Origin: Caulobacter sp. | GTDB taxonomy: Bacteria; Pseudomonadota; Alphaproteobacteria; Caulobacterales; Caulobacteraceae | DNA: 64,000 nucleotides | NCBI GenBank assembly: GCA_017745235.1 | Contig: JAGHZU010000003.1 | Span: 190,465 to 254,464 of the forward strand | Reading direction: 5' to 3' | Shown: positions 609 through 64,000 of the stretch, piece by piece | Layout: every line of letters begins with the position of its first letter | How positions within the stretch are numbered: position 1 is the first letter of the stretch | Notes under the pieces: model-generated | Databases searched by the model: none | What the model saw: the letters and a program-made list of their open reading frames with translations, nothing else | What the model was told of the DNA's origin: nothing | Position numbers and translations under genes: made by a program

Positions 609-3125
609 TCAATGGCGAGAAGATGCTGCCGCGACCAACAGCGCCCATCCCCCGCCGCTAGCGGCCAGAAGCATGGCGAAAATGGCGAGATGCGGCGGCA
701 GAGAGGCGAGCTGGAAAATCGCTCCGACCGCTGGAAACGTAAAGATCGCGCCCAGAATCGCGCTGACTAAGAACGTGATAAGCCATAATACCCGCCGCTC
801 CGCGCCGAACAGGTTTCCGGTCGTGAAGGCGTCGATTAGCGCCAAGATGAGATTGCCCGTCACGAGCGTGAGAAACGCTGCGCCTCGCGCGACCGGAGCG
901 GCGCTACCCCCGTGGAGAAGGGAGACATAGAGGCCACCCGAAGCGACGAGGACGCCAAGACCCTGCAGCATGGCAAGGCCAATTTGCCCTGGACCGAACA
1001 AGGGCTCGTCGATGTCGCGGGGTGGCCTCCGCATGGCGGAGGAGTCGGCGGGAGCGGCTTCGAAGACGAGAGAGGACGTCGGATCGACGATCAACTCCAG
1101 CAACACCACGTGCATGGGCAGGAGCACCGGCGGCAAGCCAAACAGGATCGGCGCCAGCGCCAAGCCTGCAATCGGAACGTGGACCGCAGTGATGTAGGTC
1201 ATTGCGCGCCGAAGGTTCGCGAAAATGCGCCGGCCAAGCCTCACCCCCTCCACGATCGACGCGAAACTGTCGTCCAACAGCACCAGGTCCGCCGCCTCGC
1301 GCGCTACATCCGCCCCCCTGCGTCCCATGGCCACGCCGATATGGGCAGCCTCCAGCGCCGGGGCGTCATTGACCCCATCGCCGGTCATGGCCACCACCTC
1401 GCCAGAGGCTTTCAGTATTTCGACAAGCCTGAGCTTTTGCTCGGGTCTGATGCGCGCGAATACGCGCACATGCTTGAGCCGCTCGCGAAACGCCGCCTCC
1501 GACAACGCGGCCAACTCCTCCCCGGTCAGAGCGCCCGCGTCGACCGACAGACCAGCCGTCCGTGCGATGGCAAGAGCCGTCGCCGGATGGTCGCCGGTGA
1601 TCATGATGACCTTGAGGCCTGCTTTGCTGGCCTCATCCAGCGCGGCGGCGGCGTCGGCCCGCAAGGGATCGACAAATCCGAGAAGGCCGAAGAACTCAAA
1701 GCGCGCGTCAGAGGGGTCTGCAGGAAAAAGCCCCCGCTCCGCGCAAGCAGCTACGCCCAAAACACGAAGCCCTTGCGCTGCGTAGGATTCGACCACCCTC
1801 TGGAGGTTCGCCTTATCGTCATCGGAAAGCCGGCAGAGCTGAAAGATCGCCTCTGGAGCGCCCTTCGCCGCGGCCATGCGCTTGCCCGATACAGCCCAAA
1901 GCTGGACGACCGCCAAACGTTCAGCCTGCAAGGGCCAAACTCTGCTTGGCCCAGGCTTGTCAGCCCGGAATGCGATGCTCCGCGCCGAGCATAGAGCCAG
2001 AACGGCTTTGTCCATCGGATCTACGGGACGGACAGCACAAGCCAGGGCGCAAATCCGCAACAAGCGAACGGATGGTTCGCCCAGCTCTGCCCCGTCCTCG
2101 ATCGCCGTCTCGCCACTCGGTGTCCAGAGCCGCGCCACACGCATCTGGTTCTCGGTCAGGGTGCCAGTCTTGTCGACGCAAAGCACGCTGGCCGCGCCCA
2201 GGGTCTCGATAACCGCACTGCGACGAACCAGCACCTGATGCGCCGCCAGCCGCCAAGCTCCCAAGGCCAGAAACACGGCCAGCACCATCGGGAATTCTTC
2301 CGGAATCAACGCGATGGCGATCGTCACGGCCGCCAAAGCCCCCTGCCCCCAATCGCCCCGCAAGAGCCCGTAGGCGATCGCCACTGCGATGCTGAAGGCG
2401 ATCGCGAGTGCGCCGATCAGAGCCGCAAGTCGCTTGGCCGATCGCTGCAACGGCGTCGATGATGGCGCTATGGCCGCCAACGATCCGCCAAGCTTGCCGA
2501 TCGCCGACCTGGCGCCTGTCTGGGTCATCCTGACGACGCCCTGGCCGCTGACAACGAGCGTTCCCCCATAAACGCGCGCGCTGACTCCGGACGGGGCGTC
2601 GTCATCTTCACCGGTGAAGTCGCCATTCGGCGTCCTGATGACAGGGGCCGCCTCGCCGGTCAGTACGGATTCGTCGATGCTGAGAACACCGCCTTCCACC
2701 AGGACGCCGTCAGCGGTCAGCCGCTCGCCCTCGGCGACGAGCACCATGTCTCCGGGCGCCAATTCTCGCGCCAGGACTTGGTGTTCGATCCCATCGCGGA
2801 TGACTCTGACCCGCGGTTGAGCCAGTTCCCGCAACGCCATCAAGGCCCGTTCGCTACGAGCCTCCTGAATGACCACCAGAGCTATGCTCATGGTCGCCCC
2901 ACCGAGCAGGAACAGCCCCTCGGCAAGATCTCCGAAAGTCAGATAGAGGCCCGCCGCGACCATGAGGAGCAGGAACATCGGCTCGCGCAGGGTTTCCAGA
3001 CCAATACGCCCCAGGTTCCGCTTGGGCGGTCCCGGGATTTCGTTGGGCCCGGCTTCCTGAAGGCGACGCCGCGCTTCTATCTCGCTCAGGCCTTGGAGAG
3101 ACGGTGTCATGGCCGTTCTCCTCAA
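609..3125 (-). CDS. Cation-transporting P-type ATPase (type II, Ca2+/CtpE-CtpF-like)
   Basis: 838 aa with LTGEA, IPEEFP, DKTGTLT phosphorylation motif, KGAPE, TGDHP and TGDGVNDAPAL. Confidence 0.93.
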   Translation of the reverse strand: MRRTAMTPSLQGLSEIEARRRLQEAGPNEIPGPPKRNLGRIGLETLREPMFLLLMVAAGLYLTFGDLAEGLFLLGGATMSIALVVIQEARSERALMALRELAQPRVRVIRDGIEHQVLARELAPGDMVLVAEGERLTADGVLVEGGVLSIDESVLTGEAAPVIRTPNGDFTGEDDDAPSGVSARVYGGTLVVSGQGVVRMTQTGARSAIGKLGGSLAAIAPSSTPLQRSAKRLAALIGALAIAFSIAVAIAYGLLRGDWGQGALAAVTIAIALIPEEFPMVLAVFLALGAWRLAAHQVLVRRSAVIETLGAASVLCVDKTGTLTENQMRVARLWTPSGETAIEDGAELGEPSVRLLRICALACAVRPVDPMDKAVLALCSARSIAFRADKPGPSRVWPLQAERLAVVQLWAVSGKRMAAAKGAPEAIFQLCRLSDDDKANLQRVVESYAAQGLRVLGVAACAERGLFPADPSDARFEFFGLLGFVDPLRADAAAALDEASKAGLKVIMITGDHPATALAIARTAGLSVDAGALTGEELAALSEAAFRERLKHVRVFARIRPEQKLRLVEILKASGEVVAMTGDGVNDAPALEAAHIGVAMGRRGADVAREAADLVLLDDSFASIVEGVRLGRRIFANLRRAMTYITAVHVPIAGLALAPILFGLPPVLLPMHVVLLELIVDPTSSLVFEAAPADSSAMRRPPRDIDEPLFGPGQIGLAMLQGLGVLVASGGLYVSLLHGGSAAPVARGAAFLTLVTGNLILALIDAFTTGNLFGAERRVLWLITFLVSAILGAIFTFPAVGAIFQLASLPPHLAIFAMLLAASGGGWALLVAAASSRH

Positions 3126-55077: not shown

Positions 55078-58000
55078 TTGCGCCCGCGATGGCGGGGGAA
55101 TTGGGAGATGATGCGCGTAACAGTCGGTTTGTTGAGTTCAGCGTCCATGAGCGTTCTGGCGGCCGTTACGCCGAACATCGCTTACGCGCAGGAGCCCGTG
55201 TATTCCGTCGCGGTGCCTGCGGGGCCGATGAAGAAGTCGCTCGTCGCGGTGGCAAGCCAAGCCCACATCAAGATCCTCTTCGAGACCGAACTGGTCGCCG
55301 GGCTCAAGGCTCCAGCGCTTAGCGGCCGATACACGCCGCGTGAGGCCGTGGAGCGGCTTCTGACCGGCACGCCCATAGCCGTCGAACAGGTCCGCCCAGG
55401 CCTTCTGGTGCTGCGTTCGCGGCGCTCTCCCGTAAGCACCTTAGGCGGCGATGGGCTGGCGGCGGGTGAGGCGCCAGGACAATCGGCCAGCCTTTCGGCG
55501 CCGGACTCCGAACCCGTGCTGGTCGAGGAAATCGTCGTCGGCTCGCACATCCGGGGCGCCAGGGATGCGGCCTCGCCTGTCGTGACGCTTGGCCGCGAAA
55601 CCATAGATCGCGGCGGCTTCGGCAGCATCGCCGACGCCCTGGCCGCGCTACCACAGACCTTCTCCGGGACAGCCAGCAACCGCGCCGGCGGCGTCGCCGC
55701 CGACACGACCGGCAACAACGCCGGGCGAGCTACGGGCGTCAATCTGCGCGGCCTGGGCGCGGACGCCACCCTGGTGCTCGTGAACGGTCGTCGCATGGCC
55801 GGTGCGGGCCTGATGGCCGACTTCGCCGACATCTCAAGCCTGCCGCTGTCCGCCGTCGAGCGCGTCGATGTTCTGCTCGACGGCGCCTCGGCCGTCTATG
55901 GATCGGACGCGGTTGGCGGCGTGGTCAATGTGGTGATGCGCGACCGTTGGGTGGGCCTGGAGACCCGCGCGCGCGTCGGTGGCGCGACGCAGGGCGGCCT
56001 TGGGCAGTATCAACTCGGCCAAACCTTCGGTACGGCCTGGACAAGCGGATCGGTGCTTTTGAGCGCCGAATATCAGAGAACTAACCAGGTCATGGGCCGT
56101 GATCGCACCTATACCGCCAGCGCCGACCTTCGGCCGTTCGGAGGCGTCGATCACCGCCTCTTCTACAGCCAACCCGGCACAGTGCTCGTCGGCGGAGCGC
56201 CGGCGTTCGCGATCCCATCGGGCCAGAACGGCACGGCGCTGACGCCGGGATCGTTTCTCGCGGGTCAGGCCAACTATCAGGACATGAACCAGGTCGCGGG
56301 CATCCTGCCCGAGCAAGAGCGCTTCGCGATCTACGCCTCGGCGTCGCAGGATCTCACCGCGCGCGTCAGCGTCAACGCCGAGGCCCGGTTCAGCAATCGT
56401 CGCTACGCCCATTGGAACCTGGCGCCTGTGGCGGCGCTGACGGTGACGCGGGCCAATCCATATTTCGTGTCGCCCAACGGCGCGGCGTCCAACACCATCG
56501 CCTACTCTTTCCAGAACGAAACCGGGGCCAGCCGCGGCGTCGGGCGGGTGCGCAGCACCAACTTCTCGTTCGGCGCCAAGGTGGATCTTCCCGCCCGCTG
56601 GCGGCTGGATGTCTATGCCGGGCACGGCGAGGAACTGACCCGTGGCGGCGCGAGCGGGCTCATCAATTCGGCGGCGTTGAACGAGGCGCTCGGCAACACG
56701 CCCGACAATCCGCAGAGCACCTACAGCGCCAGCCGCGATGGCTACTTCAATCCCTATATCGGCCAAGGCCGCAATACGCAGGCGGTGCTGGACTTCGTCG
56801 TGTCCGGTTGGGACCGTCGCCGCACGCTCGGCAAGCTCGACATCGTCAACGCCGCCGCCGATGGCGCGCTGTTCTCCTTGCCGGCGGGCGCCGTGCGCCT
56901 GGCGTTCGGCGCGCAGGCCCGGCGCGAGTTCCTCAAGATGTACGGCGTCAGCACCTCCTCGTCCCTGATCCCCGTCCCGCTTTCCCCGCGTCGCGGCGAG
57001 CGCACGGTCCACGCCGTGTTCGGTGAAGCGCGCGTGCCGCTGTTCGGCGGCGATTTTCAGAGGCCTGGGCTTGCGAAGCTGGAACTGTCGGCCGCCGTTC
57101 GGTTCGAGGACTACGGCGGCGGCGTCCACTCGACCGTTCCCAAGCTTGGCCTGGCCTGGGCGCCCGTCGAGGACCTGACCCTGCGCGGAACGTACGGCGA
57201 GTCCTTCCGCGCGCCGTCGATCGGACAGCTCACCGACGCGCCGGGCGCAACCCCGGTGACTCTGAACAACGGGACGCGAAACGTGCTGACGCTGATCCTG
57301 ATCGGCGGCAATCCCAACCTTTCGCCAGAGACCGCCAAGTCCTGGACGGGCGGCTTTGAATACGCGCCCCTCGCCCACCCCGGCTTGCATCTTTCCGGAA
57401 CGCTGTTCCGCACCGAGTTCGAAGGCCGCATCGGTCGGCCGGCGATCAACTATCTCTCGACAATCCTGACGGCGGCGGATTTGGCGCCGTTTCGCACCCT
57501 GGTGTCGCCCGCCTCCAGCAGCACCGACCTGGCCCTGGTCAAATCCTATCTGGCCAACGCCTCCGTCGCCGCCCAGGCGCTCTACCCGGCCGAGGCCTAT
57601 GGAGCGATCGGCGACGCGCGCTACGTCAATGCCGGAGCCTTCACTGTCGAGGGTGTTGATCTGGCGGCCGCACATCGCTTGACCCTGGGCGAGGATCGTC
57701 TCGATCTCAGCGGCAATCTCTCCTGGTTGCTGCACTACAGGCGCAAGGTCACCTCGGCCTCGACCACCGCCGAGCTGGCAGGCATGCCGGGCTTTCCCGC
57801 AGATCTGCGCGCCAGGGCCTCGGCGACCTGGACCCACCAGGCGTTCGCGACGACCGTCTCGCTCAACCATATCGGCGATCTCCACACCGACAGCGGACGG
57901 CGCATGGCGTCGCTGACGACCGCCGATGTGCAGGTGCGATGGGCGCCGTCGGCGCGCTCGGGCCCGTGGCGCGGAACCGCCGTGTCGCTGACGGTTCAGA

Positions 58001-58116
58001 ACCTCTTCGACAAGGACCCGCCGTTCTACGACGCGCCCCAGATCGTCGGGTTCGACGCCACCAACTATGACCCGAGCGGCCGAGTCGTCGCTCTGCAGCT
58101 GACCAAGGCCTGGTAG
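55078..58116 (+). CDS. TonB-dependent outer-membrane transducer with N-terminal STN domain
   Basis: STN segment, EEIVVGSHI TonB box, plug (NLRGLG...LVLVNGRR...DGASAVYGSDAVGGVVN), C-terminal W. Confidence 0.93.
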   Translation: MRPRWRGNWEMMRVTVGLLSSASMSVLAAVTPNIAYAQEPVYSVAVPAGPMKKSLVAVASQAHIKILFETELVAGLKAPALSGRYTPREAVERLLTGTPIAVEQVRPGLLVLRSRRSPVSTLGGDGLAAGEAPGQSASLSAPDSEPVLVEEIVVGSHIRGARDAASPVVTLGRETIDRGGFGSIADALAALPQTFSGTASNRAGGVAADTTGNNAGRATGVNLRGLGADATLVLVNGRRMAGAGLMADFADISSLPLSAVERVDVLLDGASAVYGSDAVGGVVNVVMRDRWVGLETRARVGGATQGGLGQYQLGQTFGTAWTSGSVLLSAEYQRTNQVMGRDRTYTASADLRPFGGVDHRLFYSQPGTVLVGGAPAFAIPSGQNGTALTPGSFLAGQANYQDMNQVAGILPEQERFAIYASASQDLTARVSVNAEARFSNRRYAHWNLAPVAALTVTRANPYFVSPNGAASNTIAYSFQNETGASRGVGRVRSTNFSFGAKVDLPARWRLDVYAGHGEELTRGGASGLINSAALNEALGNTPDNPQSTYSASRDGYFNPYIGQGRNTQAVLDFVVSGWDRRRTLGKLDIVNAAADGALFSLPAGAVRLAFGAQARREFLKMYGVSTSSSLIPVPLSPRRGERTVHAVFGEARVPLFGGDFQRPGLAKLELSAAVRFEDYGGGVHSTVPKLGLAWAPVEDLTLRGTYGESFRAPSIGQLTDAPGATPVTLNNGTRNVLTLILIGGNPNLSPETAKSWTGGFEYAPLAHPGLHLSGTLFRTEFEGRIGRPAINYLSTILTAADLAPFRTLVSPASSSTDLALVKSYLANASVAAQALYPAEAYGAIGDARYVNAGAFTVEGVDLAAAHRLTLGEDRLDLSGNLSWLLHYRRKVTSASTTAELAGMPGFPADLRARASATWTHQAFATTVSLNHIGDLHTDSGRRMASLTTADVQVRWAPSARSGPWRGTAVSLTVQNLFDKDPPFYDAPQIVGFDATNYDPSGRVVALQLTKAW

Positions 58117-58149: not shown

Positions 58150-60630
58150 ATGCGATTTCTCGCAGGGCTGGCGCTTGCTTGCGCGCTAGCTGGCCCCGTC
58201 GCGGCAACGCCCCCCGCACCGCCGAGGCCGTATACCGTCGAAGACCTGCTCGCCGTCCGAAACTTCGGGCGCGCGGCGTTCTCGGGCGATGGGCGCACAG
58301 CCATCTTCGAAGTTCAGGGGCCCATCACGGCCGCCGGACAATGGGATCTCGAGTTCCTGTCCATCCAGCGGACAAGCCGTCTCTATGTCGTCGATGTCGA
58401 GCGCGGCGGCCCGCCCAAACGTCTGCTGCGATCGGCGGCCGGTGGCGAAACCCTCGGCGCGGTCTCGCCCGACGGACGGCGCGCCCTCGTCTACCGGCTC
58501 GTCGACCATACCAACGAGCTCGGGGTGCTGGACTTCTCGACCCGGACGGTGAGCTGGTCCGGCCGCGCGGTCGACGCCGAGGCCTGGCTCAGCCTCGCAC
58601 GTTGGCGCAACAACACCGAGGTCGTGTTCCTGGCCACGACAGCCGACGCCCCGTCCATGCTCCTGAACCAAGGTTGGCAGAGCCAAGCGCGAACCATCGC
58701 GGCCTGGAAGGCGGCCCAGGCTGGTCAGCCAAGCGTCGTGGTCCTGAGGGGTGGCCCCGGCGCCGAACAAAACCCGACCTGGCCGCAAAGCGATGTTGTG
58801 CTGCTCGACGCCCGCACAGGCGCCACGAAGCTGCTGACGCGAGGCCCCTTCATGGAGCTTTCCATCGCCCCGGGCGGCGAGAGCGTGGCGCTGATCTCGG
58901 CGGATGAACCGGTGACGATGGATGGGTCGATGCTGGCCCAGAACGGACTCTTCGACCGTCGCCGCAGGCTGATGTTCATAGATCTTCGGAACGGCCGGAT
59001 CGTTCGTCCCTGTCCGCGCTGCGACCTTGCCGCCGCCCTGATCAGCTGGGCCCCGGACGGTGGCTCGGCCCTGGTCGTCGCGCAGCCGGATGACGCCAAG
59101 TCCGGCGACTGGAGGCGGATACGCTACTGGCGCCTTTCCACCACAGGCGCGGCCAGCGCGGTGTCGGAGGATCTGTCGCCAGGCCTGACCCGCACGGTCG
59201 GCGGCACCACGGCCCTGCTTGCGCCCGACGCGGGCTGGGTGGACGGCGCGCCAGCGATCTTCGCGCATCGCGCCGGTGAGACCGCGATGGCCTGGTGGAC
59301 GATCGATGCGTTCGGCGCCCGCGCCCTCGCATCGGACCTCTCCGTCGAGGCGGGCCGGCGCCTGGCCGCCTCGCCGCATGGCTTTCTGGTGCGCACGCCC
59401 CAGGGCGTGGTCGATCTTGCCGCGCCCCGCGGTCCGGCTGTCGCCGGCCCGCAGGACAAGGTCCTCGCGGCCTCGGCCCTGGCCGGCGAACTCCCCAAGG
59501 TCCTTCAGATCGAGGATGCCGGCGGCGCGCGGTTGCTGACGTCCACCGGGGTCGTCCGTTCCGCCTCTCCGCTTGCGCTCGGCGCCAATCTGCTGGCCGT
59601 GTCCCCCGCTGCGTCAGCGACTTTGAGCGTGACCAAGACGGCCAATGGCGTCGGAACGCTCTGGCTGGCCAGGCCGGAGAAGCCGTCGCTTGCCCTGATG
59701 GCCCTCAATGCCGCCTTGGCAGATGTCGATCTCGCCACGCCGCGACCGATTGTTCATCGCACGCCGCGTGGGCAAACGGTGACGAGTTGGCTCTACACGC
59801 CCGGTGACCACAAGGCCGGTGACGACCGCCCACTCGTCGTCGTCCCCTATCCTGGCTCCAACTACGCCTCGCCGCCCGCGCTCGCGGCGCCGGACGCCCG
59901 GGGTTACACCGCCAATGTTCGCTTGCTGGTGGGCGCCGGCTACGCGGTGCTGGTCCCCAGCCTGCCGATCCCGGCCGACGCGCCGCCCCAGGAGGGGTTG
60001 GCCGAGGCCATGCTGATGGCTGTCGACGCGACCTTGGCGGCAGACCCAGGGCTCTCGGCCAAGAAGCTCGCGGTCTGGGGACACAGCTTCGGCGGCTACG
60101 GCGCCCTGGTCGCCGCCACCCAGACCGCGCGGTTCAAAGCCGTGATCGCCTCGTCCGGTGTGAGCGACATGTTCTCATACTGGGCCGCGCAAGGACCGGC
60201 GGCGACGGCTATTCCAGAGGTCATGCTCAGGATCTCGACCATGTTCGGCTGGGCGGAGACCGGACAGGGCCGCATGGGCGGCCCGCCGTGGGCGCAGCCC
60301 CAGCGCTACATCGACGGAAGTCCCCTGCTGCAGGCCGACAAGATCACCGCGCCCGTGCTCCTCATCCAGGGCGACCTCGATTACGACCCCTACAAGTCGA
60401 TGGCGATGTTCGCGGCGCTCTATCGGCAGGGCAAGCCGGTCGAATTGCTCACCTATCCCGGGGAAGGCCACGTCGTGCAGTCGCCGGGCAATGTGCGCGA
60501 TGTCTACGCCCGCGCCTTCGCCTTCCTTCAGGCGGCGTTCTCGGCCGTCCCGGGCGAAGCGGGTGGGACCGCGACAGCGGTCTCGGCAAGGCTCGGCGAC
60601 GCCGCGCCGGCGTCACAACCTTCCCAGTAG
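58150..60630 (+). CDS. Lasso peptide isopeptidase (S9 prolyl-oligopeptidase family, AtxE2-like)
   Basis: GHSFGGY, QGDLD and GEGH catalytic triad; signal peptide; beta-propeller region; adjacent to lasso B/C genes. Confidence 0.85.
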   Translation: MRFLAGLALACALAGPVAATPPAPPRPYTVEDLLAVRNFGRAAFSGDGRTAIFEVQGPITAAGQWDLEFLSIQRTSRLYVVDVERGGPPKRLLRSAAGGETLGAVSPDGRRALVYRLVDHTNELGVLDFSTRTVSWSGRAVDAEAWLSLARWRNNTEVVFLATTADAPSMLLNQGWQSQARTIAAWKAAQAGQPSVVVLRGGPGAEQNPTWPQSDVVLLDARTGATKLLTRGPFMELSIAPGGESVALISADEPVTMDGSMLAQNGLFDRRRRLMFIDLRNGRIVRPCPRCDLAAALISWAPDGGSALVVAQPDDAKSGDWRRIRYWRLSTTGAASAVSEDLSPGLTRTVGGTTALLAPDAGWVDGAPAIFAHRAGETAMAWWTIDAFGARALASDLSVEAGRRLAASPHGFLVRTPQGVVDLAAPRGPAVAGPQDKVLAASALAGELPKVLQIEDAGGARLLTSTGVVRSASPLALGANLLAVSPAASATLSVTKTANGVGTLWLARPEKPSLALMALNAALADVDLATPRPIVHRTPRGQTVTSWLYTPGDHKAGDDRPLVVVPYPGSNYASPPALAAPDARGYTANVRLLVGAGYAVLVPSLPIPADAPPQEGLAEAMLMAVDATLAADPGLSAKKLAVWGHSFGGYGALVAATQTARFKAVIASSGVSDMFSYWAAQGPAATAIPEVMLRISTMFGWAETGQGRMGGPPWAQPQRYIDGSPLLQADKITAPVLLIQGDLDYDPYKSMAMFAALYRQGKPVELLTYPGEGHVVQSPGNVRDVYARAFAFLQAAFSAVPGEAGGTATAVSARLGDAAPASQPSQ

Positions 60631-62372
60631 CGCACGAAGGCTTCCAGCACGGTCGCCGTCAGCACCTCCGAATAGGTGTTTCGGAAGATCAGCGCATCCG
60701 GACTCAGCACCGTCTCCAGATCCTGTCGTCGGATCACGCCTTGGGCCACCAAGCGGCCCTCGAGCAGGAAGTCCCGAAGCATCGGGGCGTTGAGCGCCAG
60801 GGTGCGTCCGAGGAACACGCTGATGTCGCCCTTGGAGCGTCGCGAGACGATGATTTCGGGAAGACGGTCGGCGAAAACCCGACGCGCGAAGCTGCGCTCG
60901 CCCTCGCCTTGGCTGAGGACCGGTGTCGAGATCTCAAGGCAGGCCTCGACCACCGGCTGGCTCAGCAGCGGATGACAAAGGCGAGCCGCCGCGCCCCGGC
61001 GAGTATAGGCGAACACGCCTTGGGTCAGGGCCAGACCTCGGATCTGGGCGCGCTTGGCGGGTGGCAACCGGTGGAGATCGGTGACCCAGGGGTGCCAGTC
61101 GCCGTCGGTCCGCGCCGGCGCCAGCACCTTGGGTGCGGACATCAGGGCCTCGACCCTGCGGCTGGGATGCCCCCGGAACGATTGCGCCAGAAGGCTCCAC
61201 ACCGAGCGACGGGTTCGCAAGGCCACCTCGACTAGGCGCGTCAGGCGCGCGCCTTCACAGGGCGCGCCGCGCAGCAGGTCGCCGGCCAGCTCCGCCGCCG
61301 CCAGCTGGTAGAAGACGACATCGCCGCCATGGCCGGTGAACAGGATATCGGCGCCGACCGTCTCGATGGCCTCAAGCGCCAGGGTGTCGAAATCGGTGTC
61401 GAGGATTTCGAAGTTTGGACGAAAGGCGCCCGCGTCAGCCATCAGGCCCGCCTGGGTCAGCGCCATCACCGGCCGTTCGACACATTGAAGCGGCGTGGCC
61501 GCCCGCTCGGCCGCCGCCTTGGCATAGACCCGCTCGTCCGCCTCGGCCTGGCTACGGAAGAAATTGAGGCCAGCGTCGGCTGGTCGCCCAATGGCGCGAA
61601 GGCTTGTAGCGACAATGGCCGAGTCCAAACCGCCGGAGATTTCGCAGAGCACGCGCTGTCGGCCCAGCAGGAAGGCGCGCAGCGTACCATCGACAGCCCG
61701 GCGCAGTCCGACTTCGTCCCCCAGACGCGGGCCGCGGCGGGCCGCCTCCCCCGGCGTCCAGACGACATTGCGTCCACCAAGCTCAGGACCGTGACGGCAC
61801 ACGCCCGGCTCGATCCAGACGACGCCCTTCAAGGGCGGCGCGGCGCCCATGCGGCGTGGATCGGCCATGAGATCGGAGACGCCGTCCCAATCAACGCGCA
61901 CCCCTGCGGGCGCGGCGAGGCCTTCGGGCGGTTCGTCCGCAACCAAGGTCACCCCGTCTTTGAACCATGCGAAGGCCGGAAGCCCACCCAGGGGGTCAGA
62001 GGCGATGATCGGCCCGCCGCCATGGCGATCACGCAGGACGACGACGTAGTCGCCGAAGGCGTGACGCGCGAGCCACGGGGCGACCGATCTGGGATCCTCG
62101 CTCGGCGCCGCGCCAAGCGCTTGTGGGTCGAGGACAGCCGCTAAGCCGTCATCAAGTGATGCGCGATCGAAGACGTCTCCGATGATCGCGCCCACCGTCC
62201 CCTTCCAGTCGCCGAGCGGCCGCACGGGCGGTGCGGCCCGGTTTCTGGTCAGGGCGGCGAGGCCATAGGGCTGCAACACGAGCATCCACCCTCGGGCCTG
62301 CAGGTCGGCGACCATGGCGTCGAACGCGTCGGCGGTTCGGCCTCCTGGATGGGTCAGCACCACATAGGCCAC
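60528..62372 (-). CDS. Lasso cyclase C (asparagine-synthetase-like)
   Basis: EISGGLDSAIV, FTGHGGDVVF, CHPLLSQPVVE and RRSKG; GTG start 5 bp after the B stop. Confidence 0.9.
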   Translation of the reverse strand: MAYVVLTHPGGRTADAFDAMVADLQARGWMLVLQPYGLAALTRNRAAPPVRPLGDWKGTVGAIIGDVFDRASLDDGLAAVLDPQALGAAPSEDPRSVAPWLARHAFGDYVVVLRDRHGGGPIIASDPLGGLPAFAWFKDGVTLVADEPPEGLAAPAGVRVDWDGVSDLMADPRRMGAAPPLKGVVWIEPGVCRHGPELGGRNVVWTPGEAARRGPRLGDEVGLRRAVDGTLRAFLLGRQRVLCEISGGLDSAIVATSLRAIGRPADAGLNFFRSQAEADERVYAKAAAERAATPLQCVERPVMALTQAGLMADAGAFRPNFEILDTDFDTLALEAIETVGADILFTGHGGDVVFYQLAAAELAGDLLRGAPCEGARLTRLVEVALRTRRSVWSLLAQSFRGHPSRRVEALMSAPKVLAPARTDGDWHPWVTDLHRLPPAKRAQIRGLALTQGVFAYTRRGAAARLCHPLLSQPVVEACLEISTPVLSQGEGERSFARRVFADRLPEIIVSRRSKGDISVFLGRTLALNAPMLRDFLLEGRLVAQGVIRRQDLETVLSPDALIFRNTYSEVLTATVLEAFVRYWEGCDAGAASPSLAETAVAVPPASPGTAENAA

Positions 62373-62376
62373 GGGG

Positions 62377-63033
62377 CTAGACCTCCATGATCGGCGCGAA
62401 CGCGCAAAGGCGTTCAGCTTCATCGTCCAGGGCGATGTCCTCCACCTGGAGCCAGCAATGGGCCTGGAACGGCCAGGTGCGCACGCCAAACACCCAGGTT
62501 GGCCGATGCCCCAGCACTCTCAGGAAGGCGGCGAGCATGCCGCTGCGAAACAGGCAGACACCGTCCATCGGCAACCAGGGCGCCAGTCGCCGCCAGACGG
62601 CGATGTCCGCCAGCAGGCGTGGGATGTCGTGGTGCGCGGACGCCTCTGACGGGCCGTGGGCCTGGACGACCTGGCGAAAGGTGCGGCGGCGGCTGGCGAG
62701 GCCAGCCCGCACGGCGGCGGCCAGCGCGGCGATGTGGGAAAAGCGAACGCGGCCGTGCATCTGCGGGGCCAACTCCAGAAGCCTGCGCGCCGTGCGCTCG
62801 GGCGCCGTCGGGCGCGATCTCAGGGGCGATGCGTCGCCGGCGAACATGACCAGGCCCGCGCCGACAAGCTCCTCGCCCAGTTGGACATCGGGCGTGACCA
62901 GGATCTCCCCATCCAGCACGACCAACCCTTCCGGGAGCGGAAGGCAGAAATAGGCGTCGGCGTCGACATCGAGAAACACCAGGTCGCTGTCGATCATCAC
63001 CGCATGGACGGGCTCGGTCAGTTGCAGTCGCAC
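62377..63033 (-). CDS. Lasso B protein (fused RRE + transglutaminase-like leader peptidase)
   Basis: LVFLDVDADAYFCL RRE; VCLFRS, FGVRTWPFQAHCWLQ and ALDD Cys-His-Asp triad. Confidence 0.92.
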   Translation of the reverse strand: MRLQLTEPVHAVMIDSDLVFLDVDADAYFCLPLPEGLVVLDGEILVTPDVQLGEELVGAGLVMFAGDASPLRSRPTAPERTARRLLELAPQMHGRVRFSHIAALAAAVRAGLASRRRTFRQVVQAHGPSEASAHHDIPRLLADIAVWRRLAPWLPMDGVCLFRSGMLAAFLRVLGHRPTWVFGVRTWPFQAHCWLQVEDIALDDEAERLCAFAPIMEV

Positions 63034-63058
63034 GGCATTGTCCTCGGCTCGGCGAAGG

Positions 63059-63088
63059 CGCCGGCGGCGACGATGGCCGCCGCCGGCG
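63059..63088. terminator. GC-rich hairpin between precursor and B gene
   Basis: 11-bp perfect stem CGCCGGCGGCG/CGCCGCCGGCG with an 8-nt loop. Confidence 0.7.
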
Positions 63089-63094
63089 GTCGGC

Positions 63095-63202
63095 TCAGAC
63101 GTTCGCGAATTCCCGGGGCACAGGGCTTTCCGGGATCGTGCCTTCGGAGCCTTCGGTCAGCTGCTTGGCCGAGCCGACGCGGATCAGACGCTGGGTCATC
63201 AT
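63095..63202 (-). CDS. Lasso precursor A3: leader MMTQRLIRVGSAKQLTE, core GSEGTIPESPVPREFANV
   Basis: Hand translation; RBS AAGGAGAG; LIxxGxAxxLT leader with Thr at -2; Gly1 and Glu8. Confidence 0.92.
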   Translation of the reverse strand: MMTQRLIRVGSAKQLTEGSEGTIPESPVPREFANV

Positions 63203-63264
63203 GTCTCTCCTTGAGGATGTTCAACCGCGAGATGCGGCGCAATCAGGAGGCGACCGGAGCGACG

Positions 63265-63280
63265 TATATTCAAATCTATA
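63265..63280. promoter_or_regulatory. 16-bp operator-like box TATATTCAAATCTATA, copy 1
   Basis: Identical to 63674..63689; 63 bp upstream of the A3 start. Confidence 0.65.
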
Positions 63281-63320
63281 TTTGCCGGTTCGAAATCCAG
63301 CGTCGGCGTCATTGGGCTGC

Positions 63321-63415
63321 TTAGAGGTGGCGCGGGACGAGCGCTTCGGAAGCGAGCCCCCGTCACCAAGGCTCAACGACCTCGCCAGACCGCCCAGGAT
63401 CAGACGTAAAGGCAT
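63321..63415 (-). pseudogene. Lasso precursor A2 with 1-nt deletion (restored core GDGGSLPEALVPRHL)
   Basis: Leader MPLRLILGGLARSLSL then GDGGSLP; adding one G at CCG^AA gives EALVPRHL*; span is 95 nt. Confidence 0.75.
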
Positions 63416-63504
63416 GGGGGCGCTCTCTATGGGCGATGACTTTTGCCAATGCGTGGCGCGCAGGGCGACGGCGGACGACCATGCCGTCCGCCGTCGCGTC
63501 GAAA

Positions 63505-63618
63505 TCACAAGCCTGAATAGAGCCTGCCGGTCATGTCTTCCGGCACCAGCTGGATATCGCCGGCCTGGGTCAGGGCCGTGGCCGAGCCGATCGCGATCAG
63601 TCGCATACGCATCGTCAT
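63505..63618 (-). CDS. Lasso precursor A1: leader MTMRMRLIAIGSATALTQ, core AGDIQLVPEDMTGRLYSGL
   Basis: Hand translation; RBS AAGGAG; Thr at -2; Ala1 and Glu9. Confidence 0.88.
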   Translation of the reverse strand: MTMRMRLIAIGSATALTQAGDIQLVPEDMTGRLYSGL

Positions 63619-63667
63619 CTCCTTAGGTTCGAGCCGCCGTTTGCGGCTCGAACAGGGGGCTACCGCC

Positions 63668-63695
63668 CGCGACTATATTCAAATCTATAGTCGCG
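63668..63695. promoter_or_regulatory. Operator-like box copy 2 within a 10-bp inverted repeat (CGCGACTATA-TTCAAATC-TATAGTCGCG)
   Basis: Read directly; 16-mer core lies 56 bp upstream of the A1 start and overlaps the upstream gene's stop. Confidence 0.65.
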
Positions 63696-64000
63696 AGCGT
63701 ATCGATGCGGTCAGGGCGGCTGTGAAGATCGCCCCGCTGCGCCTTGCGCGGCGTGCGTAGTACCGCCGAAAGAAGGCGGCGAGCTCGTGAGCCGCCACCG
63801 GCCATCGCTCGGCGGACAGAGCAATGGCTTCCGCAACAGCGAAGGGCGCGAGCTGGTTCAGGACGCGGGTGACCTCGGCGGCGAGCACGCGATTGTCCAC
63901 CTGTTCACGGAGGACGCCGAGCGCCTGCAACGGCGTTCCAGCGCTGACAGGGCCCGTGACGCGCCGGAAGAGCTGGAGCGACAGGAGTCCGGCCAGGCCG
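63685..64000 (-). CDS. 3' end of a probable GntR-family regulator (runs off window)
   Basis: Open frame ...NRVLAAEVTRVLNQLAP...RRYYARRARR...RL*; GntR genes commonly precede precursors in this cluster type; no HTH visible in window. Confidence 0.45.
   Translation of the reverse strand, partial: GLAGLLSLQLFRRVTGPVSAGTPLQALGVLREQVDNRVLAAEVTRVLNQLAPFAVAEAIALSAERWPVAAHELAAFFRRYYARRARRSGAIFTAALTASIRSRL

Follow-up and report, generated by a model that had tools for sequence, protein, structure and literature searches.

A probable pseudogene in place of a third lasso precursor gene in a multi-precursor cluster of Caulobacter

Multi-precursor lasso clusters and the locus studied here

Class II lasso peptide clusters with several precursor genes are known in Caulobacter, among them those of caulosegnins I-III in C. 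segnis and caulonodins I-VII in Caulobacter sp. K31 (PMC13352647, PMC7549694). The locus described here lies in a 64,000-nucleotide stretch of Caulobacter sp. DNA, referred to below as the window, and resembles these clusters in having several tandem precursors for a single fused B protein and a single C cyclase, as well as short leaders with Thr at position -2 and rings of 8-9 residues closed on Glu; Ala1, which is found in precursor A1 of the window, is also possible in peptides of this type. The caulonodin sequences used in this comparison belong to the general background of the field. The locus differs from the caulosegnin and caulonodin clusters in that its middle precursor gene is very probably a pseudogene, and in that every working precursor comes with a 16-bp box and a terminal hairpin of its own.

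Lasso clusters associated with an isopeptidase are likewise already known, and as in the alphaproteobacterial clusters of the astexin type, an S9 peptidase, a TonB-dependent receptor and a regulator adjoin the locus instead of an ABC exporter (PMC13352647). Unlike in the astexin-type clusters, the regulator beside the precursors is of the GntR type, and the link between peptidase and peptide is putative. As a pseudogene, the relic of the middle gene is thus an ordinary one in a cluster of known type. The closest clusters are those of Caulobacter sp. BE254, Caulobacter sp. UC70_42 and a Caulobacter-like MAG.

The two working precursor genes are A1 (63505..63612, minus strand; leader MRMRLIAIGSATALTQ, core AGDIQLVPEDMTGRLYSGL) and A3 (63095..63199, minus strand; leader MTQRLIRVGSAKQLTE, core GSEGTIPESPVPREFANV), which reach 55 and 59 bits, respectively, with a family profile HMM of 21 precursors run on the six-frame translation of the window (1,522 segments in all); A1 is conserved in relatives, and alternative ATG codons are found at 63618 for A1 and at 63202 for A3. 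Both are followed on the same strand by the intact gene for the lasso B protein, a leader peptidase with a transglutaminase-like core (62377..63033, minus strand; PF13471, E 2.9e-18), and by that for the asparagine-synthase-like lasso cyclase C, also intact, the start codon of which is uncertain (60528..62489, minus strand; PF00733, E 4.9e-17). The plus strand carries an S9 prolyl-oligopeptidase-family protein (58150..60630; PF00326, E 5.6e-27), which is likely to be the lasso isopeptidase, as judged from the cluster type (PMC13352647), and a TonB-dependent transducer with STN, plug and barrel domains (55078..58116; PF07660, PF07715, PF00593). The 3' part of a GntR-family regulator gene (63685..64000, minus strand; PF00392, E 6.7e-11) continues beyond the window.

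Identical copies of the 16-bp box TATAGATTTGAATATA stand ahead of A1 (box 1, 63674..63689, minus strand) and ahead of A3 (box 2, 63265..63280, minus strand), and in every related cluster the element stands before both genes with no or almost no change. No other non-coding element of the locus is as well conserved, as seen in the window and in four further loci (L002, L003, L034 and L063). Since the gene for the GntR-family regulator terminates just ahead of box 1, the box may be an operator for this regulator or part of a promoter. In another Caulobacter species (locus L004, genome G008; about 1245-1560, minus strand), two tandem precursors with the Ala1 cores AHLPFGEQESMDVSDCWGV and AHLPTGEQESSDVSDKYGI lie behind the same box. 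Each working precursor is then followed by a long, perfect and GC-rich stem-loop without a U tract, for which relatives have equivalents: a perfect 15-bp stem-loop after A1 and upstream of the relic (63465..63497, minus strand; -36.7 kcal/mol, z -3.8), and a 13-bp stem-loop after A3 and before B (63059..63088, minus strand; -37 kcal/mol, z -2.8). These structures are likely to be attenuators or mRNA stabilisers that set the ratio of precursor to enzyme. An additional perfect 11-bp stem-loop lies immediately ahead of the Shine-Dalgarno sequence in the A1 5' UTR (63627-63653; z -4.6), where the sister species have a different and shorter hairpin.

In a partial literature search, no match was found for the cores AGDIQLVPEDMTGRLYSGL and GSEGTIPESPVPREFANV or for the A2-type cores of relatives introduced below, GPGGTIAEAIAPRHFEPG, GPGGMVPEAITPRPFEPG and GPGATVAEALVPRHFEPG; the predicted products of A1, A3 and the A2-type genes are apparently undescribed lasso peptides. 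The same partial search returned no published description of a pseudogenised lasso precursor. Exact-product database look-ups of the A1 and A3 products of the window and of the 95-aa as-written open reading frame gave no record.

The relic and its intact counterparts

The relic of the middle precursor gene, A2, occupies 63321..63415 on the minus strand and is recognised by translation, by similarity to A3 and by orthology with intact A2 genes. Flanked by A1 and A3, it is co-oriented with B and C and precedes B by ~290 nt, which is the placement of a lasso precursor. Its start codon is the ATG at 63415-63413, which opens a leader-like part, MPLRLILGGLARSLSL (63368-63415, minus strand); the following GGT (63365-63367, minus strand) encodes Gly1, one of the residues (Gly, Ala, Ser or Cys) of lasso core position 1, in register with A3 and with the A2 alleles of relatives. 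After the leader the sequence runs GGT GAC GGG GGC TCG CTT CCG AAG CGC and on, which translates to GDGGSLPKRSSRATS and its continuation, so that Pro-Lys-Arg stands at core positions 7-9 and no Asp or Glu is available as ring acid; the preliminary description, which was made from the letters of the window, had read the same leader-GDGGSLPKRSS. The as-written frame continues through 63221..63320 on the minus strand to a stop at 63221-63223, as given by the list of open reading frames and by translation. This extension crosses the A3 box and 5' UTR with a CAI-like value of 0.45, which is the out-of-frame level, and is probably meaningless read-through. Glu8 is reached solely via a -1 shift, in the frame GAA GCG CTC GTC CCG CGC CAC CTC TAA (63347-63321, minus strand), which encodes EALVPRHL followed by a stop. 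The 7-residue tail ALVPRHL, with its Arg and His, thus exists in the shifted frame only; the tails of intact alleles have 10 residues and end in ..PRHFEPG.

Metagenome contigs were scanned for the invariant start of A3, and exact-product look-ups of A3 and A2 proteins followed, giving a dozen independent contigs with the same cluster. In related Caulobacter contigs of this set an intact 34-aa A2 precursor is present between A1 and the A3 box, in three alleles: leader MNLFLIRVGPAKALTL with core GPGGTIAEAIAPRHFEPG (L063, L070, L071, L075 and L076), leader MNAFLIRVGSAKALTR with core GPGGMVPEAITPRPFEPG (L067), and leader MTKLLIRIGSAKSLTL with core GPGATVAEALVPRHFEPG (L074); in L067, L070 and L074 the gene is found at 1283-1387 of the respective locus. 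All three share the leader motif LIR[VI]G[SP]AK.LT, Thr at -2, Gly1, Glu8 and the 10-residue tail, and they score 30-41 bits with a family HMM from which A2 sequences were left out. The masses predicted for the products of the three alleles are 1757.885, 1789.882 and 1785.916 Da. They are presumably functional precursors, although pN/pS among them, ~0.8-1.0 on 34 codons, gives no evidence of purifying selection on these few data. Species-representative genomes carry only decayed A2 copies: among 400 Caulobacteraceae species genomes no intact homologue of the read-through peptide was found, the best matches being A3 genes or noise, and the exact pattern of the relic, with either repair site allowed, had no match in the metagenome contigs scanned.

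When aligned with the three intact alleles in MAFFT, the window copy lacks a single nucleotide, in core codon 6/7; between start and stop codon this 1-nt gap is the only indel, and the leader has the same length as in the intact alleles. The frameshift site was placed by this alignment at CTTCCGAAG (63344..63352, minus strand), and the gap falls inside CTTCCGAA, at about 63346-63350, with its exact position ambiguous. The read-through core of the relic, GDGGSLPEALVPRHL, matches the intact alleles at 8-9 of its 15 positions, including EALVPRH, which is identical in the allele of L074; Pro7-Glu8 is shared with the allele of L067. The idea of a hidden third lasso precursor that is out of frame by one base, put forward in the preliminary description, agrees with both the orthology and the single 1-nt gap. 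That description had also looked to relatives for intact alleles and regarded the lack of any intact homologue as fatal to the idea; three intact 34-aa alleles exist at the same position. This comparison identifies the relic as orthologous to a genuine third precursor gene, displaced from its frame by one missing base.

As to where the base would have to be restored, the preliminary description had inserted one G to give CCG GAA. The alignment with the intact alleles bears out this placement to within a couple of bases, not its uniqueness: one base added anywhere from the in-frame TGA of GG-TGA-C to the GAA yields a core of 15 residues with Gly1 and Glu8. Lengthening of the G5 run likewise yields a Gly1-Glu8 core, GDGGLASEALVPRHL; a repair at that run was rejected, as it fits the intact alleles less well than a gap in CTTCCGAA. 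For the dehydrated read-through 15-mer we computed a monoisotopic mass of 1498.789 Da ([M+2H]2+ 750.402), which confirms the earlier hand-calculated value of about 1498.8 Da. Sungsanpin and chaxapeptin are actinobacterial lasso peptides of 15 residues with an 8-membered ring closed on Asp8. The read-through core is like them in size, with 15 residues, a predicted Gly1-Glu8 ring and a 7-residue tail, and by this analogy a compact 15-residue lasso would be feasible. Unlike these peptides it has Glu8, and its intact orthologues have cores of 18 residues. The compact 15-mer of the preliminary description holds as the length of the read-through core, its small size being the result of a secondary premature stop.

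Decay of the relic and repeated loss of the middle gene

The missing base is not the only difference between the relic and the intact A2 genes. At position -2 the relic has Ser, and since all intact A2 alleles have Thr there, this Ser is a derived, degenerative change; Thr(-2) has been described as a critical recognition element for lasso precursor processing (PMC10368454, PMC7549694). The conserved leader motif LIR-[VI]-G-[SP]-A-K reads LIL-G-G-L-A-R in the relic, the leader of which is LILGGLARSLSL and thus departs from the motif of the family. The read-through relic scores 5 bits on the family HMM, versus 30-41 bits for intact A2 and 30-59 bits for intact precursors as a whole. Relative to the cluster's own genes, the CAI-like value of the relic is 0.43, versus 0.71 for A1 and 0.75 for A3; for reference, real in-frame windows have their 5th percentile at 0.49, and out-of-frame windows average 0.47. 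The stop of the relic comes three codons early, where it replaces the codon for Glu16 of the intact alleles. The whole stretch from the A1 hairpin to box 2 is not alignable between species, and its flanks are conserved.

Because of Ser at -2, the degraded leader, the low codon adaptation and the early stop, repair of the frame may not restore processing. With the frame alone restored, the precursor would probably be processed poorly, giving little or no lasso product, and we regard the appearance of any lasso product under these conditions as doubtful though far from negligible. The statement that the gene is disabled by one missing base is thus right for the frame and may fall short where that base is taken as the sole obstacle, given a leader of 5 bits against 30-41. 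Similarly, the reading of Ser at -2 as decay after duplication stands as far as the decay is concerned and fails in its timing: the duplication is old and predates the clade, and the decay is specific to the lineage of the window.

The same cluster is carried by three species genomes of the genus (G013, G014 and G082), with good conservation of A1, A3, the two boxes and the 5' UTRs, and each of these genomes has a small leader-like open reading frame between the A1 hairpin and box 2. In G013 the middle gene reads MTSTTSLIALGPAKAVTR (14 bits, E 0.002), followed by a scrambled core without Gly1 or a ring acid; in G014 it has lost its ATG and acquired indels, a combination of start loss and indels also seen in L065, L068 and L073; and in G082 Gly1 is replaced by His and the stop is lost, so that the frame reads into the box. 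Among the metagenome loci, L066 and L069 have a 1-nt deletion in the leader together with loss of the stop, and L072 (Ga0495668_0000267) has the middle gene deleted, which leaves 65 nt between the A1 stop and box 2. Relatives thus show at least five other modes of loss of the middle gene, with A1 and A3 conserved.

A tree was calculated with FastTree from A3, B and the start of C (1,150 nt) and midpoint-rooted, with local supports of 0.8-1.0. Lineages with intact A2 and lineages with broken A2 interleave on this tree, and for this reason the data argue for at least three independent losses of A2 inside the inner clade, besides the losses on long branches.

A separate case concerns A1 in L066 and L069 (Ga0075012_10000483; ERZ27247451 k141_1026933; about 1150-1290), in which the ATG is changed to CTG, Thr(-2) to Ile, and the core is altered. 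The A3 of these loci is identical to that of relatives although A1 decays, and the cluster seems, from its sequence, to be shrinking to a single precursor.

Alternative readings and the meaning of the loss

That the resemblance arose by chance in GC-rich intergenic DNA, with no gene ever present there, is a reading to which we give next to no weight, even though parts of the similarity evidence are compatible with it. The protein profile alone does not distinguish the relic from chance: as written it scores -0.4 bits (E 85) and read through 5-6.5 bits (E about 1-2 in the window space), it is absent from the significant family-HMM matches of the six-frame search of the window, stringent local DNA alignment gives p = 0.055 against A3 and a non-significant p = 0.44 against A1, and the free choice of a frameshift leaves the analyst extra latitude. 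Semi-global alignment of the relic with A3, by comparison, gives an empirical p = 4e-4, which is comparable to the true paralogue pair A1/A3, and in an ungapped comparison from the ATG 41 of 69 nt are identical; 18,045 control windows taken from the same 64-kb stretch reach 38 at most (mean 19). The similarity tests thus disagree, and protein-profile evidence alone cannot support the relic as a gene. The decisive support for a former gene is its orthology with the intact genes that relatives carry at this site, with which it is colinear but for the single gap, and with which it shares seven identical residues, EALVPRH, in the very frame predicted by the shift. The missing base could also be an error of sequencing or assembly, or the consensus could have taken up a minority variant; the gene would then be in frame in the cell and encode a 15-residue core. 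This reading, of which the preliminary description had offered the sequencing error as an alternative, is very improbable. The genome is a draft of 167 contigs with 93.7% completeness and 4.8% contamination, and the contig that we located via the exact B protein of the window, the Logan contig SRR14086908_15191, was assembled independently from run SRR14086908 and yet perhaps from the same raw data, so that both could conceal a systematic read error or an intact allele present in a minority of the population. This contig is, however, 100% identical to window 60877-64000 (3,124 nt), the frameshift included, and because of this identity an artefact of sequencing or assembly is unlikely. The site moreover does not consist of a long homopolymer, the long genes nearby (1012, 826 and 653 codons) are all intact, and Ser at -2, the degraded leader, the low codon adaptation and the early stop go beyond one base-call error. 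A GC3 gene map intended to estimate the rate of indel errors was uninformative, the window being a compositional mosaic.

Continued expression of the relic in the lasso frame, by programmed -1 frameshifting or transcriptional slippage, would require just the -1 shift that is observed and would find the downstream frame open for exactly the expected tail. It is nevertheless extremely improbable, and we rejected the -1 slip that had been suggested earlier: no slippery heptamer of the form X XXY YYZ is present at CTT CCG AAG, where a G5 run is the only feature nearby, the fold of the 69 nt downstream is no more stable than that of shuffled sequences (z +0.7), the intact orthologues have the whole peptide in a single frame, and one relative has lost a different single nucleotide, in the leader, which speaks for random decay. 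The relic could instead have been kept for another role, as a transcription spacer between the A1 hairpin and the A3 box, as a leader decoy that binds B, or as a recombination substrate for new cores. For such a role one may point to the leader-like open reading frame that persists at this place in 4/4 representative genomes despite unalignable sequence, and to the spacing from the A1 stop to box 2, which is alike in most lineages at 201-251 nt. We consider it unlikely all the same, for the L072 lineage has deleted the region to 65 nt and keeps A1 and A3 intact, between species the sequence is conserved no more than background, and the codon usage of the relic is that of non-coding DNA.

We therefore hold it very probable that the relic is a genuine pseudogene, the decayed orthologue of the middle one of three lasso precursor genes. 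It is proposed that the ancestral layout of the clade was box, A1, hairpin, A2, box, A3, hairpin, B and C, and that in the lineage of the window A2 lost one base in core codon 6/7, by which translation would exit the frame ahead of the ring-forming Glu8. Since the as-written product would lack the acceptor acid, the B and C enzymes could not make a lasso from it. Selection would have been relaxed since this loss, or already before it, allowing Thr(-2) to change to Ser, leader residues to be replaced, codons to drift and a stop to arise three codons early. An intact A2, without a box of its own and behind the A1 hairpin, would be transcribed only by read-through from the promoter region of A1; A3-B-C has its own box, and the relic keeps the A2 layout behind the A1 hairpin. 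We infer that the relic makes no product.

For the annotation of this genome, the result means two working precursors and one pseudogene, with no third product expected from the native strain. The intact A2-type cores of relatives, GPGGTIAEAIAPRHFEPG, GPGGMVPEAITPRPFEPG and GPGATVAEALVPRHFEPG, would be better targets for expression than a repaired relic, and together with the recurrent loss of the A2 slot they are more useful leads than the relic itself. Precursor genes within one multi-precursor RiPP cluster appear to turn over at very different rates, A2 having been lost repeatedly and A1 and A3 being strongly conserved, and this uneven turnover bears on the biological role of isopeptidase-associated lasso peptides. 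It is conceivable, if tentative, that the repeatedly lost A2 is a dispensable slot in which cores are tried and discarded, or that its product is selected against, for example as one that the isopeptidase or the TonB receptor does not handle. If true, either of these readings of A2 loss would amount to a natural experiment on the purpose of lasso clusters that lack an exporter.
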